IMG/VR virus record: IMGVR_UViG_3300045988_112499
DNA: 51,103 nt
Strand: one strand, 5' to 3'
Source: a virus
The notes beneath the pieces were generated by a model. It searched no databases. It saw only the letters and a list, made by a program, of their open reading frames with translations, and had not been told where the DNA came from. Below, one piece after another: positions 3,728 through 37,412 of this stretch; positions within the stretch are counted from its first letter, which is position 1, and every line of letters begins with the position of its first letter. A program made the position numbers and the translations under genes.

Positions 3728-3746
3728 GTATATCAGTGTGATATAC
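3728..3746. promoter_or_regulatory. Dispersed palindrome copy 1: G TATATCA GTG TGATATA C
   Basis: 16 nt upstream of the RT start codon, inside the TR-RT spacer. Confidence 0.8.
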
Positions 3747-3837
3747 GTTTGCTTATATAATGGGGGTCTTCGGGCTTTGATACCCTACCAACACCGTTTT
3801 ATAAAATTTATTTTTTGCCCTTGGTTTCCCAAGTCAT

Positions 3838-3856
3838 GCAAAACAAACTGTTTTGC
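3838..3856. other. Hairpin in the TR-RT spacer
   Basis: GCAAAAC (3838-3844) / GTTTTGC (3850-3856) with a 5-nt loop. Confidence 0.4.
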
Positions 3857-3890
3857 TTTTGTGGCAAGGTTTCCGTCGATGCAATATTTT

Positions 3891-4008
3891 TATAAGCATA
3901 GCTGAGAACCGATATTCGCATTCGTATTCGACGCCGTATTATTCGTATTCGAGTAGCTGACACCTGCATTCGCACCATTATTCGAAGAACCGCTGAACAA
4001 CACACCCC
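3891..4008 (-). repeat. DGR template repeat (TR)
   Basis: 118 bp aligning without gaps to VR1 (offset +193) and over 78 bp to VR2 (offset +37679); 30 adenines on the minus strand; nine AAT codons in the VR reading frame. Confidence 0.95.
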
Positions 4009-4065
4009 GACGACGGACAACCCTTTTATTTCAACTCAAAATTTCAAAATTCAAAAAACGATTCG

Positions 4066-4080
4066 GGGCGTTACACGCCC
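4066..4080 (-). promoter_or_regulatory. GC-rich hairpin immediately 3' of VR1
   Basis: GGGCG (4066-4070) / CGCCC (4076-4080) with a 5-nt loop, spanning the stop codon of the target gene. Confidence 0.5.
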
Positions 4081-5405
4081 GGTAAAAAGCAAAGCCGAGA
4101 ACCGACAGACGCAGCCGCATTCGACGCCGTATTAGCCGTATTCGAGCAGCCGACACCCGCATTCGCACCATAAGACGAAGAACCGCCGAACAACACACCC
4201 CTTTGAGCTTCACCGGAAGCCGGAATATTTGTATAGAAATAATCTGAAAAATATGTCGTCGATCCGGCCCCAACTGCAAGCGGCATGAATTCACCATATT
4301 CACCGATAATCATTTCCTTGATATAACCTTCTTTGCGTGGCAATACGCCCCGTAATTCATAGTTATTATAGTTTGTATCTTGGAAATATTGCGGGTCCTC
4401 ACAAGCGTAAAATTCAGATAATCCCCCGTCGGTTTCTGATTGGATACGGCATTTACAACCGTCAACCCATGACCAAATATGACCGAATGGATTTTCTATT
4501 CCACGATAAGAAGGAACACCAACGGTCAAGATCGTAGTGTCATAATCTTGCGGTAAGTTGTAATTGACAACTCCGGTTGCATTACCTAATGAATTGGTTA
4601 CACCGCAAGGAAGAAGCGGATAATAACCTGTAAAATTGCTCCATTTCGTACTGTTTACCGTAGTAACTCCCGCACCCAAGCCGCCTTGCTTGTATCCTTC
4701 CGAAGTTGGTTGCGCATTGAACGCTAATTGGCAATTAAAGTTTGCATACTCAACGGCACGCAACCAATACAACACACGTTGCACGAAGTATGTGTCGCAA
4801 TTCCAATTGACTGATCCACGATTTCGGGCGTACTTTCTGAAGTTGGTTAAACTGATTGCAGTTGCGGGACGTCCTAATTGCGTTTTGCTTAGTTCGTCCC
4901 AAGCCGTTTGATTTCCCCCGCCCCTGTAATCGGCTGAAGTGTTGACAACTGAAGACAATTTCAATGTCGAACGTTGAAGGGCGGCTTCATACGCTGAAAT
5001 ATACATTTTCGGGATGCGTCTAAATCCGGGCAAAGCGTATATTGACATCAAACAACGGCGTTTAGTTCCTTCCATTTCAAAGCGGACATAGTGTTCCGGT
5101 ATTTCGACCATGACTTGCCCGGTTGCCCCCGTCAGATCAGCCGCCGCACCGTTGTCACGTTTAGTCGAATCATTGGCATGAAGATAATAAACCACGTTTC
5201 CGGCATCATTCAAGATGCAACGGCGCATAAGTGATTGAATAGGCAATGAAACATGAAGTTCCGGTCTGCCTAAACGAGTACAAGCGGAATCGGCAACATT
5301 TGTGTCCCATTCGATCCCATAAAAGTAATTATAGGGGAATTTTGGTTCCGTTCCCCCGATTCCAATTAAGATTCCCATATCAATAGCCCCATTTAAGTTT
5401 GACAT
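4071..5405 (-). CDS. DGR target protein 1, tail-associated receptor-binding candidate with C-terminal C-type-lectin-like VR
   Basis: 444-aa ORF ending in VR1; located directly after the tail-fibre genes. Confidence 0.9.
   Translation of the reverse strand: MSNLNGAIDMGILIGIGGTEPKFPYNYFYGIEWDTNVADSACTRLGRPELHVSLPIQSLMRRCILNDAGNVVYYLHANDSTKRDNGAAADLTGATGQVMVEIPEHYVRFEMEGTKRRCLMSIYALPGFRRIPKMYISAYEAALQRSTLKLSSVVNTSADYRGGGNQTAWDELSKTQLGRPATAISLTNFRKYARNRGSVNWNCDTYFVQRVLYWLRAVEYANFNCQLAFNAQPTSEGYKQGGLGAGVTTVNSTKWSNFTGYYPLLPCGVTNSLGNATGVVNYNLPQDYDTTILTVGVPSYRGIENPFGHIWSWVDGCKCRIQSETDGGLSEFYACEDPQYFQDTNYNNYELRGVLPRKEGYIKEMIIGEYGEFMPLAVGAGSTTYFSDYFYTNIPASGEAQRGVLFGGSSSYGANAGVGCSNTANTASNAAASVGSRLCFLPGV
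4084..4201 (-). repeat. DGR variable repeat 1 (VR1)
   Basis: 19 mismatches to TR, every one at a plus-strand T (minus-strand A) of TR; encodes the C-terminal GVLFGGSSSYGANAGVGCSNTANTASNAAASVGSRLCF. Confidence 0.95.
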
Positions 5406-5652
5406 TTGACAATGAAGTTTGCTTCACTGCCTTTATAATTTCCGGGTTCCAACCCGGATAAAGCCTTGTTTCAATGAAGGTCCCGTCGTCCATTCCGGCG
5501 GGCGTAACTTCAAGATAGACGTCTTCATTTCCTTCATTCTTTAAAAGGAAGGCTTGACCGTCCGGCAATGAAAAGTTGCTATCTTGCAACCCTTCAATAT
5601 TGCCAAGCTTGGCAACTTGCGGACTTACCATTTCACCACTTCTTGTGTTCAT
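5380..5652 (-). CDS. Hypothetical protein upstream of the DGR target
   Basis: 90-aa ORF overlapping the target gene start by 26 nt. Confidence 0.5.
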   Translation of the reverse strand: MNTRSGEMVSPQVAKLGNIEGLQDSNFSLPDGQAFLLKNEGNEDVYLEVTPAGMDDGTFIETRLYPGWNPEIIKAVKQTSLSNVKLKWGY

Positions 5653-5685
5653 AAGTTGAAAATTTTAGTTCAAAAATAGGTTGTA

Positions 5686-5704
5686 TTATATCACTGTGAT
5701 ATAT
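5686..5704. promoter_or_regulatory. Dispersed palindrome copy 2: T TATATCA CTG TGATATA T
   Basis: 33 nt upstream of the ATG at 5652; followed on the minus strand by TATTTTTG. Confidence 0.8.
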
Positions 5705-6138: not shown

Positions 6139-9100
6139 TTAAGTACCATATCTTACTGTATAATAATGGCCATTGCAATACCTTAAAACCAAACTGTCGC
6201 CTTGTGCCATGTCAAGCCAACCATTCCCGCCGTTTATGCGTTCGGCGTTATTATCTACTAATACGCCGTCGTCACAACCGGAAAGTTTTATTCGATTGCT
6301 GTTTCCCAACCAACCAATTTGAATATAAAGCAAGAATGATATGTCCTTGCCCGATAATTCAGAGACGGTTCTATTCATATATGCCCGTCCGGGTAATCTT
6401 ACATTTCTATATGCGGCCCCAATTGAACCGAAGAAGAAGTTGTTCGTTATACCGATATATTCTTCAATGATGTCGGTATATGCTTCACCGTGATAAGTGT
6501 CGTCAAAATGTGCATTACCCCCAATTGAGAAAGAATTTCCGTCTACTTGCAAAGCCCTTTGGGTGTACCAAGATGAATTATTCCTTGGTCTAAATTTTGT
6601 ATATAAACCAATTCCACTATTATATGAACTTCCCGAATATTCAAAACGGCCAAGACCCATTAATCCACTTGATGCGGGGAACACGTTTGCGCCTATTCCG
6701 GCCCACAAATTGGTTTTTGAGAATTTTATAAAATCGGATAACAATGCAAGACCATTGTATTTGCCTTCCATTTCAGAAGATTCAGAAACACCGATTCTTC
6801 CTTGCCCGATTTCAAAACCGCCAATGCTGCCGGATATTGCCTTGATAATGCCTTCAATTGTTGCTTTTGATGCAATTATTGATCCGTCTTGTAAAACACG
6901 GAAAGGGGCCGTATTTCTATTCTCTTTTGAAGCCCCGGCCCAAAAACGAACCGAAGAAGCTTCCGTTCCTTCGCCTGTTATTCCTGCAAGGATAGAACCG
7001 CCCGATCCTGCAAGTTGTACCGTGCCGGAAGTGACAATACCCCCGTCAATGACTGTTTTTGTATTGTCATAATTCACGGCAATGACCCAATCGTTGATGC
7101 TATATGATTGTCCAACAACTTTTGCGGTTTGGCATCGCCGCAAATCGGCTCCATTTACCCACAAATCGCCAATGTCATACGGGGCGTATGGCGTTGAGAC
7201 GAAGACACGACGTTTGCCGTCGGCGGTGTCTTGTGCTTTACTTGCTGCTTCGTATGCGTCCAAGGCTGTTTGATCAACGCTCCTTTGCCAATAGTATAGA
7301 ACATTCGTTTTGGTTGTCCATTCTGAAGAATTATAACTTCCGGTTGTCCTTGTTGTGTTAGCTATTTTTATATACAAGTCTTGAATGAAGCAATCCCCGA
7401 TTGTATAAGTGTTTGGCGTATTGATAAAAAGGGTTACACCGTCGGCCAAATAACTAACAACCTTTGCAGAAACAAACAACAAGTTTTCGTCGTCCTTTTC
7501 ATTCCAATAGTAAGAAATTATAGGGTTTCCGTTGTTGTCATACTCAACTTTTTTGCTATAAATATATAGCTTCTTTGCGGCGGTATTATAATATAAATCA
7601 CTTACATGTGCTTCTTTCAATGTAGAAGTGTTCCAACTTGAAGCGGGTGCATTACTGATCGTTGGTGCGGTTCCTTTTTTCCAAAAATGAATCCCGTTTT
7701 TGCTAATGACATTTTTAAATTGAGAAACGTTTCCTTTCACATAGAAATACAATTTCTTATCCGTCGGGGTGTACCATGTGTCACCAACATGCTTCACTTG
7801 ACTTTCAACGGTTGTCCAAGTTGTTGCGGGGTCTGATTCTTGAAACCAAGATTCGATCTTTCCGTCAATTTGATTCGTGAAGTCTTCAACAGTATTGGCG
7901 AATACTCCGTTTATGAAGGCCGTCAAAGCGGCATCCGAAGTGTATTTTGATGCCTTTTCCCAATCGCTTGAAGTATATGAACCGGACAAACGATTCGTTT
8001 TACAACGCATAATATCCCCCGAAGCACCTTGGACCCATAGGTCCCCGACTTCATACGGCGGGATTGGTGTAGAAGTGAATATTCTTCTTTTTTCCCGTGC
8101 TAATGCAAGGGCATCATTGGCAAGGGCCAAGGCGTTTGCAACTTCTGAATCTTGAAGTTCTTTCCATTTATAAACCGTTCCTTCTTTTACCCAACGAAAA
8201 ACTTTTCCGGTTTCGGTATTATAAAACAAGTCCCCCAAATGGTTTTCTTTCAAGGTTGTCGTTGTCCATTCTTTGGCCGGAATATTGCTTGTCGTTGGAT
8301 CGTATTCATAAAAGAATTGTTCAATTTGCCCGTCAAGTTGTGCCCGCAAATCATTCAATATGCCCGGCAAAGTGTTGTCGATATAATTCTTTGCGTCAAG
8401 GGATTCTTGCCCTAATTCTTCAAGCGTTTTTTCTTGGCCGTTTGAATCAAACACGATCTTCCCGCCAATTTCCCCGGCGTCGAGATCAAAATATGTGCTT
8501 CCGTCGGGCGATTGAATACGTCCTGTTTTGATAAATCTTCCGTTGACGGTTGTAAAACCATAGGTCAAGGAAACGGACCGGACATGTAACATTGTATCTA
8601 CCGAATTAACAACTCCGATCCAAAAATGATAATTCATTGCATCTTCTTCAACGCCAATTTGTTGCGGTGTGAAAACTATTGTTCCGGTATTTCCTTGTTT
8701 CAAGACTTTCGCATAAATATAATAAGCTTGTGAATCAGACAAGAAGGTTGTGTCCCCGTCCGATAAGGTCCAAGAACGGGGCATTTCTTCAATAGCATAA
8801 TGCGTCAAAATACCGCCTTTTACCCGCATAAGGTTTTTATTTCCATTGAAATTTGGCTGAAATACGGTTCCAACCAATCCAAATTGCATTGATTTTGCGC
8901 CAACTGACAACATCAAAGTATCAACCGAATTGGGCTTGATCTTATCAGTGTAATAATCACCTTCGGGATCAAAGACCATATTTAAAACTTCTTGCGCTGA
9001 TAACCAATCACGACGGGCCTTTGCAGGGTCTTTCAAATTATTGATAGTCAATATTTTGTCAATGTCAATCAAATCCGATATAACACGGGTATATGTTGAC

Positions 9101-11730: not shown

Positions 11731-12240
11731 TTAGTAAGTTTTTTTGTGTTTTTCAATAACTTTGATCACGGCCCTTTCTGAAGATTCTGTCTTCAAAGTA
11801 CCGCCGTAATGGTTTACGCATACTTTTGAATCGGCCGAAGCGATTACATGAAGTTTAGAATCGTCAAACATGTCGATCATGACAAATGAATTTCCCTTTG
11901 CAATAATGATCAAGTCTGATTCATGTTTCACAAAGATTTCAGATACACCAAAGTTGTTGATTTCGACCCGGCCAATACAACGGCCAAGGGCGACAACACG
12001 GCGATCATTGGCCGTGTTTAATGATTCATCAAGGTGCACCCCGTATTCTTCCATTCTGCCAATGAAATTTTCACGGATATAGTCATTCGTAGGGAAATCA
12101 TTTGAAAGACAAAAGTCAATTCCACGAACATACATTTCAAGTAATCGGTCTTTATCGTCAAGCGTTTTCATTTGGTCAAACCATTCTTGACAAATCCCTT
12201 TCTTTTTTGCTATCAAAGCAAGTTCTTTTCCTATTTTCAT
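11731..12240 (-). CDS. Hypothetical tail-module protein
   Basis: 169-aa ORF between the tape measure and the LamG tail protein. Confidence 0.5.
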   Translation of the reverse strand: MKIGKELALIAKKKGICQEWFDQMKTLDDKDRLLEMYVRGIDFCLSNDFPTNDYIRENFIGRMEEYGVHLDESLNTANDRRVVALGRCIGRVEINNFGVSEIFVKHESDLIIIAKGNSFVMIDMFDDSKLHVIASADSKVCVNHYGGTLKTESSERAVIKVIEKHKKTY

Positions 12241-12246: not shown

Positions 12247-12265
12247 ATATATTACTGTGATATAC
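12247..12265. promoter_or_regulatory. Dispersed palindrome copy 3: A TATATTA CTG TGATATA C
   Basis: 7 nt upstream of the ATG at 12240, between the tape measure stop and the next gene. Confidence 0.75.
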
Positions 12266-17330: not shown

Positions 17331-17831
17331 TTATTTGGCTGTTTTTGCCTTGGCCCAAATAGCCTTGCCGGATGATACGGCGCAAGGTGTTACGGTGAAA
17401 TCTACAAGGAAAATTCCTTTTGCTGAAAAATCAGCATTGATCACCGCTTCAACGTCTGCATTTGGGATCGAAATATCAAGCCCTTGTTCGGTTTCCACTT
17501 TCAATGCTACATTTGCAACGACTTCGGTTCCGTCGAATCCCCAACCCTTTGCGGCATCGGAAGAACCACCGACATACTTTGCAAGGAAAGCTTCGTCCGG
17601 GTCCATGATCGAGAAAGTAAGGGCCGGAATCTTCTTTGCTTTCTTGCGGACTTCCGGGGCCGATCTACCTTCTTCAAAATGTTCGGTCACATCTGAAGCG
17701 TCTTGCGCCATTTTACAAGTATCCTTGTACGTTTTACCGATTTTGGTCAATGCCGCCGTTGGCATTGTTCCGTCGGGTGCGGCCGTACCTACCATAATTT
17801 GAGAAAGACCTAATGTTATAAGTGAAGCCAT
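17331..17831 (-). CDS. Major tail protein
   Basis: 166-aa ORF directly upstream of chaperone/TMP and followed by a strong hairpin. Confidence 0.6.
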   Translation of the reverse strand: MASLITLGLSQIMVGTAAPDGTMPTAALTKIGKTYKDTCKMAQDASDVTEHFEEGRSAPEVRKKAKKIPALTFSIMDPDEAFLAKYVGGSSDAAKGWGFDGTEVVANVALKVETEQGLDISIPNADVEAVINADFSAKGIFLVDFTVTPCAVSSGKAIWAKAKTAK

Positions 17832-17843
17832 TTCTTTAAATTT

Positions 17844-18254
17844 TTAATGAATAATCCAATCAATCCGTATGTTGACATAATGTTGTGACAAAGACGGTTC
17901 GTTCAATACCGTTTGATTAGTCACTACCATTGCCAACCCGTCAAATTTGGCGGCCTTCAATGTCTTCAAGACAATCGTTGATATTGCTTTAAGACGTTTC
18001 CGGTTTGCCTTTTTTTGTTTCTTCTTTTTGATCTGAACTTCCATGTCAGAGACATGAATGTTGACGTTTGAAGTTCCTAATTGCGGCAAATATTCTTGTG
18101 TCAAGTCTATTGAATTGACAACAATGTCTTCGTCTTGTGAATCGTCGGGCCTTTCACCAAGTGAATAGACGTCGCCGGAAATTTCCGAAACGACTTCCGG
18201 TGATCCTTTCAGTAAATTGAAAAGCATTGTATCAAGATCAAAAGTTTGTTTCAT
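17844..18254 (-). CDS. Tail completion / neck protein candidate
   Basis: Position between head-tail joining genes and the major tail gene. Confidence 0.4.
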   Translation of the reverse strand: MKQTFDLDTMLFNLLKGSPEVVSEISGDVYSLGERPDDSQDEDIVVNSIDLTQEYLPQLGTSNVNIHVSDMEVQIKKKKQKKANRKRLKAISTIVLKTLKAAKFDGLAMVVTNQTVLNEPSLSQHYVNIRIDWIIH

Positions 18255-18718
18255 TCTGTTGTCGCTTTTTCTATGTTAGAAACTAATTTTTGCAACATCT
18301 TTGGCAATTCCTGTTGTGCAAGGTGTTCGGCTGAAGTCAGTACGTCCCGGCCCTTAGATTCGACATACAAGGCGTAATTCATTCCGGCCGTGACAACTAA
18401 GACAACCCCTTCGGGATATTTCGATCCAATCGTCTTTGCAAGCTTTTGGCCTTCTTTGATTCCGGTATTACCTTCTTTCACTTGTGCAAAGTTGTCATGG
18501 ACTGCAACGCCGTCGGAAAAGACTACATATCCGATTGAAGACCTTAGATTCCCGGTTTGATCAGTGAACCCAACATTCGCCGGGATAAGTCTTGCATGTT
18601 CTACACACATTTCACCAAGGTATTGAAGACGTTCGATTTGCTTCTTAACGATAACGTCAAGAAACGCCGCAAAACGTCGTGAAACGTCTTCTTGATTGAA
18701 TGTTGGATTTATACCCAT
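18251..18718 (-). CDS. Head-tail joining protein (HK97 gp10-like candidate)
   Basis: Position and size; start set to the ATG at 18718 (the track start is TTG). Confidence 0.45.
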   Translation of the reverse strand: MGINPTFNQEDVSRRFAAFLDVIVKKQIERLQYLGEMCVEHARLIPANVGFTDQTGNLRSSIGYVVFSDGVAVHDNFAQVKEGNTGIKEGQKLAKTIGSKYPEGVVLVVTAGMNYALYVESKGRDVLTSAEHLAQQELPKMLQKLVSNIEKATTE

Positions 18719-19050
18719 AACCGACAATGTAATTGTCCGGGATCATATTTCAATGCCGGACCTGTTATTCTGATAATACCTTCCGAAGATTTACTTTCAG
18801 AAACAAGAATTTGGGTTCCTTCGCTGATTCTTGGTGTGCCTTTGGGTAAATGGACCAAAGAAGAAAAGACCGTAACTTTCCCGTCAATACCTTGGATTGT
18901 CGCCCCTTTGCCGTTTGTTTCCTCACGACACATTGAATGAAATTTCCAAGTTGGGGAATTGTCGATCCAATTTCCTTCTTCGTCTCGTTTGCTGTCTTCT
19001 CCATTCCCAAAGACTTGCACAAACAAAAAATGATTGTATTGTGTTACCAT
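18709..19050 (-). CDS. Head closure / head-tail adaptor candidate
   Basis: 113-aa ORF in the connector gene series. Confidence 0.4.
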   Translation of the reverse strand: MVTQYNHFLFVQVFGNGEDSKRDEEGNWIDNSPTWKFHSMCREETNGKGATIQGIDGKVTVFSSLVHLPKGTPRISEGTQILVSESKSSEGIIRITGPALKYDPGQLHCRLWV

Positions 19051-19361: not shown

Positions 19362-19375
19362 AGGTCAAAGATTTA

Positions 19376-21879: not shown

Positions 21880-21921
21880 TTTAAGGAATCGCTTTGTTTT
21901 GGCGCAATAGTTATCAACATT

Positions 21922-21937: not shown

Positions 21938-22015
21938 ATAGCAATTGTTTTATTAAATAGACTTATTGTTTTGATTTTGTTGGCTATTTAATAATTTACC
22001 GAATGGTATTTTATA

Positions 22016-22023
22016 TATATTTG
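22016..22023 (+). promoter_or_regulatory. Bacteroides-type -7 box (TATATTTG) for the plus-strand moron
   Basis: Matches TAnnTTTG, about 50 nt upstream of the ATG at 22074. Confidence 0.4.
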
Positions 22024-22073
22024 CAAAATAGCTTAAATCAAGTCAAACTTTTATTTTTTAACTTAATAACATC

Positions 22074-22565
22074 ATGAAGCGAATATCATTACTCATTGTT
22101 TTTATCTATATGTGTTCTATGTTTACTTTCGCCCAAAAGATAAACAGAAATATTTTGTGTTGCACCTTGGGTGAAACCACTGAAGCGCAATTATCCAATT
22201 GTATAAAAGAAAATAATTATACCTTGGAAAGTGAATATGTATCCAATGGATTGAAGTATTATCGAATAGCTAATATAACTTTTGCTAATAAAGACTATTC
22301 AGAGGGTTTGTTTTGTTTTTATAAAGGGAAACTTCTATTTATAAACTTTTTCGTAGAAAACAATCTTTATTTTAACGGTTTAAAAGATGCGTTGACAAAG
22401 AAATATAAACCTTATCTACAAAAGGAAACAAACGAAGGGTCTGTTTCTTTTGACGACGGTACAACAATGATTTGGTTGGATGATTTGTCGGGTAGTACGA
22501 CATTGAAGTATGTCGATAAAAAAATATCAGAGCAAATCAAGTCGGATACTTCAAACGAATTATAG
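22074..22565 (+). CDS. Secreted protein (moron)
   Basis: N-terminal signal peptide MKRISLLIVFIYMCSMFTFAQ; opposite strand to the flanking head genes. Confidence 0.6.
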   Translation: MKRISLLIVFIYMCSMFTFAQKINRNILCCTLGETTEAQLSNCIKENNYTLESEYVSNGLKYYRIANITFANKDYSEGLFCFYKGKLLFINFFVENNLYFNGLKDALTKKYKPYLQKETNEGSVSFDDGTTMIWLDDLSGSTTLKYVDKKISEQIKSDTSNEL

Positions 22566-22600
22566 TTGCTTCATGTGCATATCTTTTGTATAACCTACAT

Positions 22601-22619
22601 GTATTTCAGTGTGATATAC
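22601..22619. promoter_or_regulatory. Dispersed palindrome copy 5: G TATTTCA GTG TGATATA C
   Basis: In the gap between plus-strand moron genes (22566-22766). Confidence 0.7.
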
Positions 22620-22766
22620 CAAAGCCGATCCATACTTTTGCAAAAGAATGTTCTTCGGAGTGGTTGCCGAACAATAACATATTTGAAAGGTGTTTTTCCG
22701 TATTGATCCCGTCAACCACAATTGGGACAATCAGAATTACACCTTTCTTCTTTTAAACTTATCTGT

Positions 22767-23039
22767 ATGGATCAATCAATTATTCCCTTATCGGAGAAGA
22801 CCGCCAATGATCTTTGTGAAGCTTTACAAAATTGTAGCTATTCAATGAAGTCGCTTGCAAATTCTTTCGGCCAAGCATCGAAAAATCTTGCAGTCAATAA
22901 AGTAACAATTGATATTACTAAGTATCAAGTGAAAGTCTGTATGTCCAACATTCTAATACGTTGGTATTGGAAACGCAAATTGCGTCGGGCCGAAATACGT
23001 TTGTCTAATCTTGAAAATATTATTGCAAATGAACGGTAA
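22767..23039 (+). CDS. Hypothetical protein
   Basis: ATG at 22767 (the track start at 22722 is TTG). Confidence 0.4.
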   Translation: MDQSIIPLSEKTANDLCEALQNCSYSMKSLANSFGQASKNLAVNKVTIDITKYQVKVCMSNILIRWYWKRKLRRAEIRLSNLENIIANER

Positions 23040-23259
23040 CGGGCTGATCCATATTGAATTCAAATCCGGCGGCCATGATTATTTCGGATCAATAGCGGCC
23101 CTTTTTGACACCTATGCCCCCGAAACATTGGGGGTATCAAAACAACGCTTGTATGACTGCAAGATCACGCCGGATCGCCCCTACCGGAATAAGATTTGCA
23201 CCATACGGAAAGGAAGCATTAAGAGAAAGAAGGGGAATCGAACAACTTCAAAATCATAA
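23029..23259 (+). CDS. Hypothetical basic protein
   Basis: ATG at 23029 (MNGNGLIHIEF...); basic C-terminus KGSIKRKKGNR. Confidence 0.4.
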   Translation: MNGNGLIHIEFKSGGHDYFGSIAALFDTYAPETLGVSKQRLYDCKITPDRPYRNKICTIRKGSIKRKKGNRTTSKS

Positions 23260-23263
23260 AGTT

Positions 23264-23542
23264 ATGAATTACAGGGATTTAAAAGGTAAAACGATCTTTG
23301 ATTTCGCTAAAGACGAAAGGATCATTGAAGAAATTGTTGATTTCAAACCTTCGGATAAGGGATTGAAAGACAATTACTTGAAAAGTCACCCAATCAACAT
23401 TGCACGTGACATTTATGAATATGCGTGCACGGTGAAGAATAAAGAACTTCGTCAAGCCGCCTTATTGTATGGTGACGAACTTCAAGAAGAAATGGAAGAA
23501 AGGGCCGAAGAAGCGGCAAAAGAAGGAATCATTGTTGATTGA
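23264..23542 (+). CDS. Hypothetical acidic protein
   Basis: ATG at 23264 (MNYRDLKGK...); the upstream TTG-started part overlaps the previous ORF. Confidence 0.45.
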   Translation: MNYRDLKGKTIFDFAKDERIIEEIVDFKPSDKGLKDNYLKSHPINIARDIYEYACTVKNKELRQAALLYGDELQEEMEERAEEAAKEGIIVD

Positions 23543-23545
23543 AAG

Positions 23546-23571
23546 AAAGGGGGCTTTATTTGGCCCCCTTT
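23546..23571. terminator. Bidirectional terminator between convergent genes
   Basis: AAAGGGGGC (23546-23554) / GCCCCCTTT (23563-23571) with an 8-nt loop; the right arm overlaps the last codons of the MuF gene. Confidence 0.65.
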
Positions 23572-26011: not shown

Positions 26012-27478
26012 TTATGCTTCTGTTGGTTCGTTAATAAAGAATGAAGCGGCCCGGTCGGATTCGGCTTGCATTTGAGCAAAGTCGGCATCCGGGTCCTTGG
26101 ATAATCGTGCAAGTTTTGCCGAAAGCTTTTGAGAAACAAGCGGTTTTCCACCGTTGGCCGTTGTCCATTTTGTCACTTCGGCTTGATCATCTTCGATCAT
26201 ATACGGGGTGATTTCCGGTTCGATCTGCAACATGTTTGCGTCATTCTGAAGCTTCATGTTAAATTGCCCGACATAGGCTTTTATTACATTGACACGACGT
26301 TGCAAGTATTCGTCAAACACTTCTTGATGATCTGCAACCTTCAAATGTGCATCCATGAACAAAAGCTTCAAAGCAACACCGGAAATTGCGCCAAGACCTT
26401 TTACGGCATCGAATGAAATATCCGGGGTTTGTGTAATGGTGTAGATCATACGAAGCAAGGTTTCGATCTCCAATTTGACCGATTCCGGGGCGTTCTGCCA
26501 AGAAAGGTATTGCGCCGTTGCGCCGTCTTCACCTTCAATGATTGATCCGGTTTCGCCTTTCTTGCTGAACCCTTTGACTTCACCTTGAACGAAGATTTTT
26601 GGCGAAGCATGATAATCGTTGGTATCTGCAAAGTTGGAAAGAAGCTTTTCAAGACGATCAATAAGAACTTGCACGTCGGCCCATTCAACGTGTTCTTGGC
26701 AACCGAAGACAACGGGAATCTTCCCAATCGCAATGTTCTTTGGATAACCTTCTACAAGGTCATATCCATTTGATCCGATTTCCCAAAGGAAGTGTTGCTT
26801 GTCTGTGTATGTCTCAAAGAAAGTATGTGAAACCTTCTTTTCGTCAACCCGAACGAATTCACGGGAAAAGGCAACCATGTCCCCGGATTCATCGAAGTAG
26901 GGGTAAAGCGTATCGCCCAATAACGGGGAAAAGACCGCAACACGCAATTTGAACTTTGACTTGAACCCGTAATCTTCGTTTTCTTTTTCAACCGGATACC
27001 ATAATTCGGCACATTCTGTGCAACTGAAGATGTTGCGGGCGATCTTTCGGTTCAAAGACTTGTCCTTGACGTCAAACAAGATGCGCTTGACTGCCTTTAA
27101 AACTGTTTCTTGTGATTCCCCTTTGGTTTCCGCATTTAGTTCAACGGGATTGCCAAAGATGAAAGCAACGGCCCGTTTAACAATCAGCTTTTGAAGGGAT
27201 AGAGCAATACGGGCGACGGGTTCCCACCGATACCCTGTTTGTTCTTCCCCGTTGACGGCTGTCACCACTGTTGTTGTGTTGTCGTCTTCTGTAAGATCGT
27301 CTTTGTCGATTTTGACTTTTTTGTCTGGACGATTGATCTTGTTGAATACTTCGTGTTGAAGTGGGTCAAGGTCTTTGATTGCACCTTTGGCGTCCGGTAA
27401 TGGAATACCACGTTTTGACTTCAATTCCGTGATAACATCGGTTTGATTGTCTTTTTTGAAAACTTCTTCTATTGTCAT
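26012..27478 (-). CDS. Portal protein
   Basis: 488 aa, directly after the large terminase and before MuF. Confidence 0.8.
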   Translation of the reverse strand: MTIEEVFKKDNQTDVITELKSKRGIPLPDAKGAIKDLDPLQHEVFNKINRPDKKVKIDKDDLTEDDNTTTVVTAVNGEEQTGYRWEPVARIALSLQKLIVKRAVAFIFGNPVELNAETKGESQETVLKAVKRILFDVKDKSLNRKIARNIFSCTECAELWYPVEKENEDYGFKSKFKLRVAVFSPLLGDTLYPYFDESGDMVAFSREFVRVDEKKVSHTFFETYTDKQHFLWEIGSNGYDLVEGYPKNIAIGKIPVVFGCQEHVEWADVQVLIDRLEKLLSNFADTNDYHASPKIFVQGEVKGFSKKGETGSIIEGEDGATAQYLSWQNAPESVKLEIETLLRMIYTITQTPDISFDAVKGLGAISGVALKLLFMDAHLKVADHQEVFDEYLQRRVNVIKAYVGQFNMKLQNDANMLQIEPEITPYMIEDDQAEVTKWTTANGGKPLVSQKLSAKLARLSKDPDADFAQMQAESDRAASFFINEPTEA

Positions 27479-27491: not shown

Positions 27492-27510
27492 GTATATCAG
27501 TGTGATATAG
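27492..27510. promoter_or_regulatory. Dispersed palindrome copy 6: G TATATCA GTG TGATATA G
   Basis: 13 nt upstream of the portal ATG at 27478, after the terL stop. Confidence 0.8.
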
Positions 27511-27526: not shown

Positions 27527-29020
27527 TCAAGCAAACAGACCGCCCAAACTCTGTTGCTTGCTTCCTTTTCTCTTTTCGACGGTTCCGGTCAATGCGTCCG
27601 GGGCGTCGTCATGGTCATTCTTTCCGACCTTCATGTAATTTGTTATAGCCTTGTAGAATTCCGGCCACATGTGTTCCCACCCCTTCGGGAAATAGAGCAA
27701 GTTTTGAACGGCCGCCGAATGTTGGTAAATGCGGATAGCCTTGTTATCCTTTTGATGAAACCACTTGATCTTGGTCTTGTTGTTCCCCATGATCCGACAT
27801 TGTGTGCCAACATTACGGGCGAAGCCACGCCCGCCGTTGTTCGATTCGATCACCGCTTCTTGGATATTATGCTTCGATAACATTTCGGCCGTTTTCGGTT
27901 CGGTGTACTCCATTCCCTTTTGCGTATATAAGACATCAAGTACATAGTTCCCGGCTTCCGTTTCGACATAACAGATTGAACACAAGAAGTCTTTCCCTTC
28001 GTCGGCCGTATCCGTGTAGTTCTTGCGGATCATTCGTTTGCAATATGGAATTACTTCATATTCGTTGAAAGGATTTTCATACATCAAGCCTTCAACGGGT
28101 TTCGGGTCTTGCTGATAAAGGGATTCAAATACATGCGGGTTTCGCTTTCTTGTAGACTGAAGCTTCGCAAGGTTGTGTCTTTCGGGCCAAAGGGCTTCAC
28201 CTTCTTCACGGGGATCATATTCACTTGGCGCACCAACTTTGATTGCTTGGTACACGACGACAACCCAACCGTCGGGATTGTCTTCAGAGTAACGCCCTTG
28301 TTGTTCCAATAGCCGCCCGGCCAAATCATGCTCGTGCCAACGGGTGAACACGATCAATTGTTGGCTATCATTGTGAAGGCGGGTTTCTGCAACTGTGTCG
28401 TACCAATCTTCAATTGCTTCACGGACAACCGGGGACCAAGCGGATTTGGCATCTTTGTAAATATCGTCCATGATCAGCATGTCAACGGGTTCGCCTGTCA
28501 ACGGACCGCCGACACCAACGGTCTTGACCGAACCACGGCGGCCGACAATTTCAAATTCATCGGCATTTCTTAACCACGATCCGGCAATGGTTGTCACATT
28601 GGAAGAATTCAAGCACGTGTCGGGGAATATTTCGTGATATTCCGGTGAATCAATCACCCTTTGGATTTCACGGTTGAACTTTCGGGCCTTCGGTGCATTA
28701 TAGGAAACAACGGCGATCTTTGTATCCGGCTTCCTTCCCAATACATAAGAAGGCAAACGCCGGGTTGATCCTTCCGATTTACCATGTTGCGGGGGCATGA
28801 AGACCATTAGTTTTTTGATCTTGCCTTCCGCAAAGTCGTTCAGAACTTTGTAATAACGTCTATGAAAGTCGGCGGGCTTGAAAGTCTGCATTGTTGAAGA
28901 CGTAAACGACAAAAGGTTAGTCCGGCTTTGCCGAATCAACCTTTCACGTAAAGCCTTGAAGTATTGCAACTTCTCCCTTCGTGATACTCTATTGCCTTTA
29001 TTTGCTTTTGCTGCTTTCAT
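27527..29020 (-). CDS. terL: Terminase large subunit
   Basis: Walker A-like PPQHGKSE, Walker B-like VDMLIMDDIY; 497 aa. Confidence 0.9.
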   Translation of the reverse strand: MKAAKANKGNRVSRREKLQYFKALRERLIRQSRTNLLSFTSSTMQTFKPADFHRRYYKVLNDFAEGKIKKLMVFMPPQHGKSEGSTRRLPSYVLGRKPDTKIAVVSYNAPKARKFNREIQRVIDSPEYHEIFPDTCLNSSNVTTIAGSWLRNADEFEIVGRRGSVKTVGVGGPLTGEPVDMLIMDDIYKDAKSAWSPVVREAIEDWYDTVAETRLHNDSQQLIVFTRWHEHDLAGRLLEQQGRYSEDNPDGWVVVVYQAIKVGAPSEYDPREEGEALWPERHNLAKLQSTRKRNPHVFESLYQQDPKPVEGLMYENPFNEYEVIPYCKRMIRKNYTDTADEGKDFLCSICYVETEAGNYVLDVLYTQKGMEYTEPKTAEMLSKHNIQEAVIESNNGGRGFARNVGTQCRIMGNNKTKIKWFHQKDNKAIRIYQHSAAVQNLLYFPKGWEHMWPEFYKAITNYMKVGKNDHDDAPDALTGTVEKRKGSKQQSLGGLFA

Positions 29021-29547
29021 TTACCGTTTGCAAGTCTCCTTTCTATGTCTGCGATTTTTGCGTCCAATTCTTCATCCGTAAGATTTCCGAATAAGTCTTT
29101 CCCGTCTTTTCCGGTGACTTCGGCCGATTGACGATTCTTGAAGTTGTCCGGGTCCCCGTTTGTAAGGGTGAATATGATTGCGGCCGTGTCCGGCTGAATG
29201 TGCTTTTTGATGATCGTTTGTTCTTTAACTTTAGGCTTTACCACCTTCTTACCTGTCTTTGGGTCAATTTCGGATTCCTTGGAATCAACATACACCGTTT
29301 TACTTTCGTCAACGGTGTAGCCTTGAATCTTCTTCAACAAAGACTTCTTTGCTTCAGTGACAAAGAATTCCATTCTTGCGGCTTCTGCCTTTTTTATGCA
29401 CTCCGAAAACTCCGGTTTGCTTGCCTTCCATTCATGAAACGTGCTTTCGGAAATACCGGAAAGGCGGCAAACTTCAGCTATTGTGTAGCTATCGGCCCGG
29501 ATAAGGGAACATATCGTTTCAACGATCTTTGTGTTATACTTTGCCAT
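29017..29547 (-). CDS. terS: Terminase small subunit (HTH)
   Basis: N-terminal HTH (YTIAEVCRLSGISESTFHEW); 4-nt overlap with terL. Confidence 0.6.
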   Translation of the reverse strand: MAKYNTKIVETICSLIRADSYTIAEVCRLSGISESTFHEWKASKPEFSECIKKAEAARMEFFVTEAKKSLLKKIQGYTVDESKTVYVDSKESEIDPKTGKKVVKPKVKEQTIIKKHIQPDTAAIIFTLTNGDPDNFKNRQSAEVTGKDGKDLFGNLTDEELDAKIADIERRLANGK

Positions 29548-29551: not shown

Positions 29552-30112
29552 TTACTCTTTTAGTTCACATTTGAAGCCCCGGTCTTGCAGTTCGGAAAAG
29601 AGCATTGATAGTTTAGCAACGTCGCCACATTCCACGATCAAGCGGGTGTCGATCACTTTCTTTTCTTCTTCCGGTTCTTCTTCTTCATCCGGCTGAACTT
29701 CAAATTCGGGGATTCCCCAATCAACCGGGTCGATTTCCCATTCTTTTGCGATTTGCTGAACGTTTTCTTCATCCCATTCAATATTGGCTTTGGCTGAAGC
29801 ATTATCGGCAATAGCCAATTCCCGGCCAAATTTTGAATCAAGATCAACATCGGTTCTTTTCACTGCGACAATCTGATCCCCGGTTGTTTCAACGACAATC
29901 ACATTTTCAAGGCCAATTGCGGCCGCATTTTCGACGGTTTTGTTTCCGGCGATAATTCGGTTGTTCTTATCCAAAAGAATTGAACGTCCGGCCCCAAATT
30001 GGCGTAGGGACGTTTCGACAAGGTGTTGTCCGTATTCGGTTCCTTTGTTGGCGTTGATGTTGTCCGGGATCAACTTGTCAATCTTGGTTTCGGTGATCTT
30101 GTTTGTTTTCAT
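29552..30112 (-). CDS. ParB-like nuclease domain protein
   Basis: N-terminal ParB/Srx-like region (GAGRSILLDKNNRIIAGNKTVENA), acidic C-terminus. Confidence 0.6.
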   Translation of the reverse strand: MKTNKITETKIDKLIPDNINANKGTEYGQHLVETSLRQFGAGRSILLDKNNRIIAGNKTVENAAAIGLENVIVVETTGDQIVAVKRTDVDLDSKFGRELAIADNASAKANIEWDEENVQQIAKEWEIDPVDWGIPEFEVQPDEEEEPEEEKKVIDTRLIVECGDVAKLSMLFSELQDRGFKCELKE

Positions 30113-30627
30113 AGCTTGAAAAGTGAATGGATAAAGGGTGAAAGAAAAAAGAATGTCAATGCAAAGGCTATCAATGCGCCGATAACAGTGAACACAAAAT
30201 CAAGCAATTCGACACAACCATGTCCCCGGCTGTCTCGATATTCCTTTGCGGCCCCGGAACAAACACCAAGAGCAAAACCAAGCCAAGGGAACCACAACCC
30301 GAAGACAAGAGAAATGATAAATCCTGCAAGGGTGTGAAGGCGTTTATCTTTGGTAAAAATTGAAAGGACCTTTTCTTTGATTGAAGGTTGATTGAAAACG
30401 GTTTTTGATCCGTCGATCCAAACCGGGGGTTGAGTATTGCCGGAACGAACCGACAACCAAACGTTCCCAAATAGAAGAATTGAAAGACGTTCTTTGATTG
30501 AAGGCTTCCAACATGAAATGCACTGTTTCCCGTCATTCCACACTGACAAAGACGAACATTCTTCATTTGTCATGTCTTCGGGCTTCTGAAGCACTTTTGT
30601 TGCTTCTTTGAAATTCTTTGGTTTCAT
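30109..30627 (-). CDS. Membrane protein
   Basis: C-terminal hydrophobic helices (LAGFIISLVFGLWFPWLGFALGV, VIGALIAFALTFFFL). Confidence 0.45.
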   Translation of the reverse strand: MKPKNFKEATKVLQKPEDMTNEECSSLSVWNDGKQCISCWKPSIKERLSILLFGNVWLSVRSGNTQPPVWIDGSKTVFNQPSIKEKVLSIFTKDKRLHTLAGFIISLVFGLWFPWLGFALGVCSGAAKEYRDSRGHGCVELLDFVFTVIGALIAFALTFFFLSPFIHSLFKL

Positions 30628-30670
30628 ATCGTTGATTATTAGCGTTAATAATCTGCGAAAATAAAGAAAG

Positions 30671-30689
30671 GTATATCACACTGATATAC
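30671..30689. promoter_or_regulatory. Dispersed palindrome copy 7: G TATATCA CAC TGATATA C
   Basis: 43 nt upstream of the ATG at 30627; exact reverse complement of the copy 1 core. Confidence 0.8.
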
Positions 30690-30720
30690 CTTTCGGCGAA
30701 AAGATATGAAACATTTATCC

Positions 30721-31221: not shown

Positions 31222-31635
31222 TTAGAATGGTAGATCATCGGCCGGGTTATCACTTGATGTTGGAGTAGGGGCCGCCGTTGAATTACTTTGCGCCGGGGCT
31301 GCCTGTTGGTTCCCTTCTCCTTTCATTCCACAAAGAAATACTTCACTTGCTTCTACATTGATCGCAATTTGTTTGTTTCCGGCCTTATCGTCATACATCT
31401 TCACGTCTTCCCGGCCATGAACAAAGACTTTGACCCCGGATTTCAAAAGGGGAAAGACATTTCCACCTTCACCGTACCAAAGAACGGAAATCCAAACGGG
31501 GACTTTTACTTTGTTTCCTTGACTGTCTTTTGTGAATTTTTCGTGTGCAACTGAAAAGGCTACATACTTTTTGCCGTTAAATTCTCTGATAACGGCATCG
31601 GAACCAAGGTTTCCAATAACTTGAACATTTAGCAT
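31222..31635 (-). CDS. ssb: Single-stranded DNA-binding protein
   Basis: OB-fold N-terminus (VQVIGNLGSDAV), low-complexity linker, acidic tip DDLPF. Confidence 0.85.
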   Translation of the reverse strand: MLNVQVIGNLGSDAVIREFNGKKYVAFSVAHEKFTKDSQGNKVKVPVWISVLWYGEGGNVFPLLKSGVKVFVHGREDVKMYDDKAGNKQIAINVEASEVFLCGMKGEGNQQAAPAQSNSTAAPTPTSSDNPADDLPF

Positions 31636-36387: not shown

Positions 36388-36407
36388 AATTGTTTCAATC
36401 TTAATTA

Positions 36408-36872
36408 TTAATATTTGAATTCTGTAAAATGAACAATTGCCATTGTTTGCGAATTGTCATAAGGAAGGAACCATTCTTTGAAGACATCGAAGGGAAATCC
36501 GTCGTTTTGGGCTGCTTCACTCAACTTCGACATTTTGAATCTTTGTGATTCATTGTCCCAAACTTGGCAAACATCTTCTTTCCATGATTCGGCATCACCA
36601 ATGATCAATGGTTGAATACTGATCTTGTCAAATCGGGCAATCTCAATTTGCTTTGATCGGTACGGCATACCTTCCCATTGTCTGGTCGAAAGGTAAGCTT
36701 TGCCGGAATTGATCAATTCGGCCTTCTTTTGCCACCAAGCAAGATTGGCACGGATTGTATGTTTCTTTTCACCGGAAGACAACTTTTTAGCAAAGTTTGT
36801 CGGTTCCCCGGCGTTTGACATTCTTTTTGGAAATGCTTTTGAAAGCATCAAAACAACTTTTTTCTTTTCCAT
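36408..36872 (-). CDS. Hypothetical protein (possible ASCH/PUA-like)
   Basis: Start set to the ATG at 36872 (MEKKKVV...); KKHTIRAN resembles ASCH-type proteins (weak). Confidence 0.4.
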   Translation of the reverse strand: MEKKKVVLMLSKAFPKRMSNAGEPTNFAKKLSSGEKKHTIRANLAWWQKKAELINSGKAYLSTRQWEGMPYRSKQIEIARFDKISIQPLIIGDAESWKEDVCQVWDNESQRFKMSKLSEAAQNDGFPFDVFKEWFLPYDNSQTMAIVHFTEFKY

Positions 36873-36887
36873 GATTTTAAGTGGTTG

Positions 36888-36903
36888 TATGCAATTGCAT
36901 TGC
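36888..36903 (-). repeat. TGCAATGCA motif, variant B copy
   Basis: Reverse complement of 48053-48068; just upstream of the ATG at 36872. Confidence 0.7.
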
Positions 36904-36910
36904 AAATGAT

Positions 36911-37174
36911 TTACTTTTGATTTACTTTTGCTTGTTTCCCGAAAATATCGTTGTCTATTACCTTGTATCCTTTTTCTTCAAGGAACCGATCAACGACCGG
37001 GACATTTAGGCGGGTTTCTCCGTTATGCTTGAACCAACCCGGAAGTCCTTTCACGTCGGCCCAAAATTTGAAAGATTGAGAATTGGCGACTTGCTGCTTG
37101 AACCCGTAGAACTCGACAAAGCCGAAGTCACGGCGTTCACCTTTCGGATTTATCAAAGTGATCGGTTGTGCCAT
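36911..37174 (-). CDS. Hypothetical protein
   Basis: 87-aa ORF. Confidence 0.45.
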   Translation of the reverse strand: MAQPITLINPKGERRDFGFVEFYGFKQQVANSQSFKFWADVKGLPGWFKHNGETRLNVPVVDRFLEEKGYKVIDNDIFGKQAKVNQK

Positions 37175-37395
37175 TATCGCAAACTTTCAATTCTATTGCG
37201 GAATCGGGCCGCATATTCTTCGTTTTTGTTTTCCGGGGAAACAAGGATCACCGTATTAGCGTCGATTCTCAAACAAACTTTTCCTTTATCCCGTTTTCTC
37301 AATTCTTCCAAGTCAATTGATCCATTCTTGGAAATATCGGCCTTTTGGGGCCGTTTCTGACCTTCGGCGGTCAAACCTTCATTTTTTCTTGGCAT
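37174..37395 (-). CDS. Hypothetical basic protein
   Basis: 73-aa ORF; its start codon abuts palindrome copy 8. Confidence 0.4.
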   Translation of the reverse strand: MPRKNEGLTAEGQKRPQKADISKNGSIDLEELRKRDKGKVCLRIDANTVILVSPENKNEEYAARFRNRIESLR

Positions 37396-37412
37396 ATATT
37401 ACTGTGATATAG
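37394..37412. promoter_or_regulatory. Dispersed palindrome copy 8: A TATATTA CTG TGATATA G
   Basis: Spans the stop codon of 37399..38004 and touches the ATG at 37395. Confidence 0.7.

Follow-up and report, generated by a model that had tools for sequence, protein, structure and literature searches.

Dispersed 17-bp palindromes at gene-module junctions of temperate Bacteroidales phages: a putative operator network and a candidate repressor

We describe a 17-bp palindrome, TATATCA-N3-TGATATA, that recurs eight times at gene-module boundaries of a temperate, siphovirus-like Bacteroides prophage (IMG/VR record IMGVR_UViG_3300045988_112499; "the window" denotes this whole stretch of 51,103 nt). 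Judged from its sequence and positions in this and related phages, the element is probably a previously unannotated, conserved operator network of temperate Bacteroidales phages, with a testable candidate repressor in a 94-residue helix-turn-helix (HTH) protein of the window, HTH94 (phrog_9710). A search of the literature found no paper describing the element.

The whole window was searched with the pattern TATATCANNNTGATATA, at most one mismatch being allowed. Eight matches were obtained (Table 1), against a chance expectation of 0.00 in dinucleotide shuffles. They are exactly the copies listed in a preliminary description of this DNA, which gave each with one more flanking base on either side, and the arm mismatches and two classes of centre are as described there. 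Allowing two mismatches added no further site in the window (0.13 expected), and a degenerate form covering the whole family, TRTNTYA-N3-TRANAYA, picked out the same eight sites exactly (0.23 expected). With one mismatch to the degenerate form, further matches appeared at 6149-6165 (TATCTTACTGTATAATA) and 19040-19056 (TGTGTTACCATGAATTA), both at gene junctions, in a number that lies within the chance expectation of 4.3.

The palindrome can be read as 7-N3-7 or as 8-1-8, and its centre triplets are found in both orientations. When read on the minus strand, which carries nearly all genes of the window, seven copies conform to TATATCACA[G/C]T[G/A]A[T/A]ATA, and copy 7 has its centre inverted. The copies are spread over 34 kb. 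Seven of them lie wholly inside non-coding gaps, with a chance probability of about 2e-7 (8.3% of the window is non-coding according to the map of open reading frames, ORFs, made in this analysis), and copy 8 lies across a stop/start junction; both this placement and the distances to the next minus-strand ATG, 0-45 nt for copies 1-4, 6, 7 and 8, bear out what had been claimed. No copy was found in the immunity switch at 46.5-48.7 kb, even with two mismatches or with the degenerate motif, and the repeats of the switch do have a different sequence, TTATGCGTGAA / TTCACGCATAA, as had been noted. A host regulon was considered and rejected: in a set of 185,579 representative genomes there are 70 occurrences of the exact 17-mer, in unrelated phyla and at about the chance level, with none in a related prophage and no enrichment in Bacteroides.

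A megablast search with 12 kb of the window found no near relatives in the phage collection. Relatives were gathered through the portal, the SbcC-like protein, the major capsid protein and a DUF4406-DnaA_C fusion protein, and hundreds of related contigs from IMG/VR proved to have the element at syntenic junctions, as do published genomes of Porphyromonas, Riemerella and Bacteroides phages; conservation of the element thus extends to distant relatives. The conserved spots are before the portal ATG (6-18 nt; the terminase/portal junction of copy 6, shared by nearly all relatives), behind the tape-measure gene (7-8 nt ahead of the following ATG; copy 3), at the stop of the DnaA_C fusion gene (copy 8), before the ParB-like/packaging block, and as a pair flanking a divergent region upstream of the scaffold gene. 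The position of copy 4 is the most widely conserved one in the phage family. Three published complete genomes have their sites at equivalent places: Porphyromonas phage PP754928 (TGTTTTA-N3-TAAAACA, three sites, 0 expected), Riemerella phage PJN03 (TGTATC-N5-GATACA, three sites, 0.08 expected) and Bacteroides phage Versailles (TGTGTT-N5-AACACA, six sites, 0.19 expected).

The window and its closest relative, contig 3300029723_000142, have TATATCA as their half-site, the next clade has TGTATCA, and a very large clade has TGTTTCA, TGTTTTA, TGTATTA or TGTGTTA. From one lineage to another the two arms vary symmetrically. Conservation within the half-site follows T1, G/A2, T3, W4, T5, Y6, A7, the centre being variable, and all half-sites of one lineage shift together (T-A-T in 26 of 26 in the window lineage, T-G-T elsewhere), which points to a phage-encoded partner. 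Two contigs, L211 and L212, have only a regulatory cassette in common with the window (HTH94, a GerE/LuxR-type protein and the integrase; in L212 also the product of 46090-46380), and no window-like structural genes were seen in L212, a partial contig of 14.7 kb. Both bear the motif at gene junctions, and one L212 site, with an 8-nt gap followed by TATATTTG, has the same arrangement as in the window.

Repeats that simply mark boundaries, with no dedicated regulator, could also be placed in this way, either as homologies for modular recombination and moron insertion or as relics of a small mobile palindrome. In favour of this, every copy is found at a module boundary. Copies 4 and 5 are separated by a low-GC moron of the opposite strand, whereas the two corresponding sites of relatives are only 80-130 bp apart or surround other cassettes, and phages whose late modules are unrelated share the motif. 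However, 17 bp is very short for homologous exchange, no REP/RAYT-type transposase is present, and the narrow, conserved distances to -7 boxes and start codons imply that the element functions in expression. The concerted change of all half-sites within a lineage implies selection by a reader that acts in trans, and we regard boundary repeats of this kind as highly improbable.

The spacing to promoters divides the sites into two classes, with copies 2, 4, 5 and 7 associated with promoters and copies 1, 3, 6 and 8 located at junctions. Promoter-type sites lie 2-10 nt upstream of a TAnnTTTG -7 box or over the start of a reverse-strand promoter, and the palindrome there extends from about -14 to -36 or lies on the start of transcription. 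Exact minus-strand boxes follow copies 2 and 4, in agreement with the preliminary description. Six such boxes are found in gaps of the window: the two that adjoin palindromes, a pair in the immunity switch that makes up the early promoter, and single boxes at 252 and upstream of the integrase gene. Copy 5 serves the plus strand, and the equivalent site in relatives overlaps the start of a reverse-strand promoter.

The same spacing was observed in relatives. The scaffold-proximal site is followed 2-5 nt on by TAnnTTTG and lies about 46-48 nt from the ATG, and the site at the packaging block has its -7 box 7-10 nt on. Among 172 distinct sites of relatives, 46 have a TAnnTTTG that starts 2-14 nt downstream (mode 3; background 0.6% of windows), and in a further 28 a reverse-strand box lies up to 22 nt downstream, this being the width of the search window, which does not resolve the distribution of the gaps. 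Scaffold-distal sites that were read directly have a 3-nt gap to the reverse-strand box, which places them over the predicted start of the leftward transcript. No -7 box accompanies the junction-type sites, among them the portal and post-tape-measure sites of relatives; the start codon that follows is 0-18 nt away, and some of these sites overlap the preceding stop. The earlier statement that the element is not a simple promoter core is thus correct but incomplete, as a subset of sites is held at a tight distance just upstream of -7 boxes, in the position of an operator.

As the junction-type sites precede start codons along the direction of transcription, and do so on both strands, they might instead act at the RNA level, as a hairpin in the polycistronic mRNA that either is recognised by a protein (a ribonuclease or RNA binder) or serves to terminate transcription, to stabilise the message or to control translation. 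Such a function would suit copy 7 and the sites equivalent to it. Their flanks covary (aaagg/ccttt, aaagt/gcttt, aagcc/ggctt) to give a 13-bp stem followed by a T-run, terminator-like, and they fold at -15 to -17 kcal/mol (z = -5 to -6). A stable, covarying stem with a U-tract, as in an intrinsic terminator, was found only here, and at this position the operator is embedded in a terminator-promoter junction.

The remaining seven window copies, on the other hand, fold weakly as sense-strand RNA (0 to -7 kcal/mol; Table 1), three sites from the very large clade (class C) fold at -0.6 to -2.3 kcal/mol, and an Rfam search of the window at gathering thresholds found nothing. Of the 172 sites in relatives, 44 have a perfect 7-bp stem, 11 have G.U defects only and 117 (68%) have true mismatches, yet the half-site sequence is conserved while the loop varies; the frequent G-to-A arm variant GTAATAC, for example, gives a C.A mismatch in the mRNA. 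Promoter-type sites, being upstream of the -7 box, are outside that promoter's own transcript, and hairpins at sites over reverse-strand starts would be truncated. The RNA processing hairpin that had been offered as an alternative is not supported, as many copies are imperfect palindromes that cannot fold in this way, and an RNA-level role for the element is altogether very unlikely. Given that a conserved RNA hairpin is lacking (117/172 sites mismatched, copy 8 at 0 kcal/mol), the element is best read as double-stranded DNA, and the conserved unit is with high probability a protein-bound site for a reader of two-fold symmetry.

For this reader HTH94 is the candidate that we favour, at somewhat better than an even chance. 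The protein was present in every motif-bearing phage whose lysogeny region was covered, and no other DNA-binding gene was common to them all apart from that of the ParB-N-domain protein discussed below. In PP754928, PJN03, L214, L215 and L221 its gene lies between those of the CI-like repressor and the integrase on the same strand, and it thus belongs to the lysogeny operon. Identical copies are carried by at least 1000 public contigs, one source of which names the organism as Bacteroides sp. The AlphaFold model (pLDDT 92.5) has helices at residues 8-26, 33-39, 44-55, 68-78 and 82-87, with 33-39 and 44-55 forming the HTH. Foldseek placed phage repressors first (186 CI, XRE proteins, 434 repressor), and the best TM-scores, 0.63-0.66, were obtained with complexes of the lambda cI N-terminal domain and its operator (1LMB, 1RIO), with E-values that are not significant.

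The base at position 2 of the half-site covaries with residue 44, the first of the predicted recognition helix. It is Gln in the window lineage, where the half-sites are T-A-T, and Arg in about 84 of 117 homologues, with T-G-T half-sites; L211 and L212 have Lys, and G in 8/8 half-sites. The pairing of Arg or Lys with G and of Gln with A is the classical side-chain/base code, and in lambda cI it is Gln44, at the start of helix 3, that reads adenine 2 of the 17-bp operator. A switch of this kind is experimentally documented for ParB/parS and Noc/NBS, where R173-G is replaced by Q173-A and the half-site TGTTTCAC by TATTTCCC (PMC7383237). The view that the palindromes are binding sites for a dimeric phage regulator, similar to stoperators or parS-type palindromes, was preferred in the preliminary description and gains from the syntenic conservation, the symmetric arm changes, the imperfect palindromes and a gene that covaries with the motif and was already among the candidates named there.

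Several observations weigh against HTH94 as the reader. The Foldseek E-values are not significant (best 0.19), a profile search against sequences of the Protein Data Bank (PDB) gave insignificant matches only, with the 434 alignment mis-registered, and the register with lambda Gln44 derives from helix boundaries and not from a residue-level structural alignment. As the window is closely related to contig 3300029723_000142, the Gln/A covariation counts as one evolutionary event only. The Leu44 variant of L214 still goes with G and the Pro44 variant of L215 goes, at one site, with A; the search for such variants covered 10 kb around each gene and gave one site each, with mixed results, while four further loci had no sites. 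The Arg44 phages L073 and L099 mix TATATCA and TGTTTTA half-sites, and distant homologues of HTH94 (27-38% identity) occur in phages that lack the motif in their early regions. Finally, autoregulation is not indicated, the neighbourhood of the HTH94 gene having no copy of the palindrome at two mismatches or with the degenerate motif. Riemerella phage CRP12 does not serve as an HTH94-negative control, since it has a distant small HTH gene at the place of HTH94, and motif-like sites that are weak only.

Directly upstream of the HTH94 gene lies a 60-residue acidic ORF. Relatives have a gene for 59-60 residues at the same place, which in L211, L215, L219 and L222 overlaps the start of the HTH94 gene, and its product may act as a partner to HTH94 or modulate it. 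An A/T-only near-palindrome, TATATAGAATATATAAATATATTC, which precedes these two genes by about 60 nt (48100-48135), loosely resembles the motif without its C/G pair; it may be a chance occurrence in A/T-rich DNA or a weak autoregulatory site.

Other binders were considered. The GerE/LuxR-type early protein was rejected, as it is absent by sequence search from PP754928 (even at E = 10), PJN03, L073 and L099; it is also not annotated in the motif-bearing L214, for which Pfam annotations only were used. The CI-like repressor was rejected because no site lies at the switch and because its types vary while the motif is constant: the CI-like repressors of motif-bearing phages are 29-69% identical and come with or without an S24 peptidase domain. 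Host SOS boxes were rejected since the LexA-like motifs of Bacteroidetes differ in sequence, the non-canonical ones being GGA-N5-TCC and CTAA-N5-TTAG (PMC8565304).

The sites also resemble parS or OB-type centromere or silencing sites, which would be read by the ParB-N-domain protein of the phage or by a host ParB and would serve silencing, DNA organisation or packaging. The family half-site TGTWTYAY is nearly identical to the parS half-site TGTTTCAC, the window's TAT variant parallels the NBS half-site TATTTCCC, and the pairing of a position-2 G-to-A change with Arg-to-Gln at the start of the recognition helix recalls ParB versus Noc. Moreover, KorB-type ParB proteins repress from dispersed palindromes, KorB being a precedent for a global repressor that acts in this manner; the models for such a reader are KorB of plasmid RK2 and SopB of phage N15. 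The ParB-N-domain gene is located just downstream of copy 7. Its product occurs in all complete genomes examined, which counts against HTH94 in that the phyletic pattern alone does not remove this competitor, and for that reason it is retained as a minor one.

We nevertheless consider a ParB-type reader quite unlikely. Whereas parS is 16 bp long with abutting 8-bp halves (TGTTTCAC-GTGAAACA; 8-0-8), the element always has an extra central base pair, giving 17 bp (8-1-8). HTH94 does not belong to the ParB family, and the ParB-like phage protein (186 residues) has no CTP-binding motif, no Pfam ParBc match and GNKTVEN in place of GERRxR; in its AlphaFold model (pLDDT 70) only the first ~75 residues are ParB-N/sulfiredoxin-like, and no HTH is evident. 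The L212 motif stands in an unrelated late region, with no ParB-like gene in the 14.7 kb of that partial contig. For a host ParB, the Arg-G contact would be lost on TATATCAC, and a phage that integrates by a tyrosine integrase has no need of partition.

A scarcely credible reader is the DUF4406-DnaA_C fusion, for which the palindromes would be DnaA-box-like sites (TATATCACA versus TTATNCACA) that couple replication to transcription. The protein has a Pfam Bac_DnaA_C match with an intact RDHTT signature in its DnaA domain IV, copy 8 overlaps the end of its gene, and TATATCACA is on the coding strand in seven of eight copies. Against it, the CACA part falls inside the variable N3 centre in relatives, the signature helix varies (RDHTT, RDRCT, RSIDS, RDISS) among phages of the same motif, and the gene is absent from the motif-bearing PJN03 and Versailles.

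If HTH94 is the reader, its homodimer would bind the eight palindromes as double-stranded operators, separately from the repressor of the immunity switch. At copies 2, 4, 5 and 7, binding on or just upstream of host-type -7 boxes would block initiation at the head, packaging, tail-fibre/DGR and moron operons (DGR, diversity-generating retroelement), and at copies 1, 3, 6 and 8, between co-transcribed genes, the bound protein would be a roadblock to read-through. Every late module would in this way be kept silent in the lysogen and early after induction. The lifting of repression is more speculative, and may come about when, with the lysogeny operon shut off, replicating genomes dilute the repressor or titrate it away. 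The sites, their placement and conservation, their weak folding as RNA, the phyletic match with HTH94 and the covariation at residue 44 are observations. We infer the binding, the sign of regulation, the roadblock and the lifting of repression from the arrangement of the sequence, and we give even chances to HTH94 being a second genome-wide repressor, apart from CI, with dispersed stoperator-like operators.

As to the sign of regulation, the opposite case is that of a positive regulator of middle or late transcription, bound at the usual place of the -33 element and recruiting host RNA polymerase; candidates would be the GerE/LuxR protein, as a product resembling sigma region 4, or HTH94 itself. 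Promoter-type sites do lie immediately before -7 boxes with no evident TTTG -33 element upstream, and the GerE/LuxR protein, which is highly conserved across the family, matches a PHROGs family annotated as sigma factor, its Versailles homologue being annotated alike. The pattern of absence that excluded the GerE/LuxR protein as a binder applies here as well, however. The gap to the -7 box, 2-5 nt in one site class and 7-10 nt in the other, differs by about half a helical turn, which would be tolerable for occlusion but not for face-specific activation. Many sites are near reverse-strand starts or promoterless, as at the portal, post-tape-measure and copy-8 junctions, and consensus -7 boxes should fire unaided; if host sigma-A suffices, late promoters must be held off in the lysogen. 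An activator is thus unlikely. Repression is favoured by sites over the promoter or start, the half-turn spacing, the promoterless copies and a binder from the lysogeny operon, and HTH94 would accordingly be classed, with reasonable probability, as a repressor rather than an activator.

A wider proposal, which we hold to be doubtful, is that a large family of temperate Bacteroidales phages (Bacteroides, Porphyromonas, Riemerella) expresses its late genes without an activator, from constitutive host-type promoters governed by a 94-residue mini-repressor that is made from the lysogeny operon and occupies parS-like 17-bp operators at each module boundary, with a copy-number timer and a superinfection immunity that is independent of CI. 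In such a timer, repressor synthesis would stop after induction, replication would multiply the operators, and titration of the repressor pool would lead to late expression. The specificity of the second layer of immunity could be re-programmed by a single Arg/Gln change.

Among known systems, the closest in function are the dispersed operators of Cluster A mycobacteriophages and of phage P1, and the closest in architecture are the 7-N3-7 repeats of Cluster O and the 17-bp operators of the lambda type. P1 has about 17 dispersed C1 operators. Stoperators have been described for Cluster A phages (L5 gp71, Bxb1, TipsytheTRex; PMC6550527, PMC9283540), and act when bound as a roadblock to transcription (PMC6550527). 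As in Cluster A and P1, short phage-specific sites are scattered across the genome, mostly in tiny intergenic gaps, some in promoters and most not; the window has eight over 34 kb, seven in gaps and one across a stop/start junction. Motif and regulator co-diverge, and the sites are presumed to silence lytic genes in the lysogen by a block of initiation and elongation. In contrast, the 20-30 stoperators of Cluster A phages are 13-14 bp long, asymmetric, oriented with transcription and bound by a monomer, whereas the eight sites described here are palindromes of 17 bp that are presumably bound by a dimer. Furthermore, in Cluster A and P1 the binder is the immunity repressor and also acts at the early lytic promoter, whereas here the switch has no copy and the proposed binder is separate from the CI-like repressor.

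Lambda and 434 repressor-operator pairs (1LMB, 2OR1) likewise combine a five-helix HTH, predicted in our case, with a two-fold symmetric 17-bp site, near the outer end of whose half-site a base is read (in our case, would be read) by the first recognition-helix residue; operators of this type measure 14-17 bp with half-sites roughly one helical turn apart, and the motif agrees with this. The window half-site contains TATCAC as they do, with a spacing of 1 bp here and 5 bp there. Their operators are clustered at the switch and their repressors have a C-terminal oligomerisation/peptidase domain, whereas HTH94 has no second domain and no significant sequence similarity to PDB proteins, and its proposed operators are single over 34 kb. 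The 17-bp repeats of Cluster O mycobacteriophages, TGTTCGG-N3-CCGAACA (PMC4351075), are similar in being 7-N3-7, in many copies, mostly intergenic or at gene 5' ends, with a variable centre and no orientation rule, and the start-associated sequences of Cluster K lie a few bases upstream of start codons (PMC3203893). Their sequences, phages and hosts are unrelated to those described here, and a candidate binder and a relationship to promoters are proposed for the present element only.

Almost nothing is known of gene timing in temperate Bacteroidales phages, although they are among the commonest prophages of the human gut and mouth. The element marks late promoters and operon boundaries straight from sequence, family-wide, and it nominates as reader a 94-residue protein that is now called "hypothetical" or loosely "repressor". 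It also yields a prediction of specificity in which one residue sets one base, Gln44 with A and Arg44 with G. If the proposal is true, it would give a second example, outside the actinobacteriophages and P1, of genome-wide silencing via dispersed operators, in this case by a repressor other than that of immunity, as well as orthogonal operator-repressor pairs for Bacteroides engineering.

The features of the window are collected in Table 1. After the portal, the gene order continues with head and tail genes, the DGR target gene and the reverse transcriptase; the assignments of the head/tail, DGR target and reverse-transcriptase genes come from the preliminary description, from homology to annotated PP754928 genes and from the sequences themselves.

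Table 1. Palindrome copies, their -7 boxes and the main genes of the window.
Feature	Position	Strand	Type or sequence	Setting	Sense-strand RNA folding (kcal/mol)
Copy 1	3729-3745		junction; TATATCAGTGTGATATA	17 nt before ATG of reverse-transcriptase gene (2701-3711, minus)	-7.1
Copy 2	5687-5703		promoter; perfect 8-1-8 palindrome	8 nt upstream of minus-strand -7 box; 34 nt to ATG of 5380-5652	-3.7
-7 box, copy 2	5671-5678	minus	TATTTTTG; exact Bacteroidetes box		
Copy 3	12248-12264		junction; minus-strand right arm TAATATA	2 nt past tape-measure stop; 7 nt to ATG of 11731-12240	-1.5
Copy 4	21862-21878		promoter; perfect palindrome	2 nt upstream of minus-strand -7 box; 45 nt to scaffold-gene ATG	-6.6
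-7 box, copy 4	21852-21859	minus	TATTTTTG; exact	head-gene promoter	
Copy 5	22602-22618		promoter; left arm TATTTCA	36 nt past stop of plus-strand moron 22074-22565	-2.7
-7 box, copy 5	22633-22640	plus	TACTTTTG; exact	14 nt right of copy 5	
Copy 6	27493-27509		junction	17 nt past terminase large subunit stop; 14 nt before portal ATG; no -7 box	-3.6
Copy 7	30672-30688		promoter; centre inverted	apex of 13-bp hairpin 30666-30694, then T-run; 44 nt to ATG of 30109-30627; start of ParB-like/terminase block	-15.2
-7 box, copy 7	30656-30663	minus	TATTTTCG; near-consensus	8-nt gap	
Copy 8	37395-37411		junction	overlaps last codons and TAA stop of 37399-38028; touches A of ATG of 37174-37395 (73-aa gene; 0 nt)	0
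Portal	26012-27478				
Large terminase	27527-29020				
Small terminase	29017-29547				
ParB-N-like protein	29552-30112				
SSB	31222-31635				
DUF4406-DnaA_C fusion	37399-38028	minus			
Replication genes	38015-39600				
RecT	42728-43621				
SbcC-like ATPase	44045-46036				
GerE/LuxR-type early protein	46586-47041	minus		first early-operon gene	
CI-like HTH repressor	47358-47855	plus			
60-aa acidic ORF	48180-48362	plus		directly upstream of HTH94 gene	
HTH94 (phrog_9710)	48378-48662	plus	94-aa five-helix HTH, lambda cI N-terminal domain-like	proposed cognate binder	
Integrase	49570-50880				

The surroundings of single copies have features of their own. The end of copy 1 is shared with an exact plus-strand -7 box, TACGTTTG, at 3744-3751. 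This box is directed into the 359 bp (3712-4070) that separate the DGR target gene from the reverse-transcriptase gene, where the DGR template repeat is expected. On the minus strand, a 12-bp GC-containing hairpin, GCAAGCAACAGA...TCTGTTTGCTTG, directly precedes copy 6 (27527-27560) and is followed by ATTTTT; it is terminator-like and overlaps the last codons and the stop (27527) of the terminase large subunit gene, with the portal ATG following after about 45 nt. An opposite-strand island of low GC content (36%), at 22000-23556, lies between copies 4 and 5 and extends further; it consists of the lipoprotein-like moron (plus strand), with its own -7 box at 22016-22023, and then of about 900 bp with weak plus-strand ORFs only. 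Relatives have other reverse-strand cassettes at this spot, including genes for ADP-ribosylglycohydrolase, radical SAM and methyltransferase proteins.

A second conserved repeat, GCAAATGCAATGCAAA(A)ATGTTGATAA ("TGCAATGCAAA"), is located in the window at 21895-21935 and at 47892-48090. In many relatives (L131-L210) it lies 35-60 nt upstream of the palindrome of the scaffold promoter, and it is found again in the interval from the CI-like gene to the HTH94 operon. It may represent a further operator or the divergent promoter.

In the GerE/LuxR protein the HTH is followed by a conserved SAWWF motif and then by a hydrophobic segment that resembles a membrane anchor. The DUF4406-DnaA_C fusion belongs to the replication module and joins DUF4406, which is nucleoside 2-deoxyribosyltransferase-like, to DnaA domain IV; its final residues, (I/V)-S-Q-stop, are set by the overlapping palindrome. 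The early protein of 164 residues encoded at 41494-41988 (minus) ends in NPAGVGCSSTNATASHAAASVGSRLC, which is closely similar to NAGVGCSNTANTASNAAASVGSRLC, the C-terminal, variable-region-like segment of the DGR target protein (4071-5405, minus); the early protein may represent another DGR target, remote from the first, or a paralogous tip with a C-type-lectin fold. In PP754928 (L050), the terminase large subunit gene at 17686-20133 encodes 815 residues, against 497 in the window, and the two matching blocks are about 800 bp apart, which suggests an intein or another insertion.

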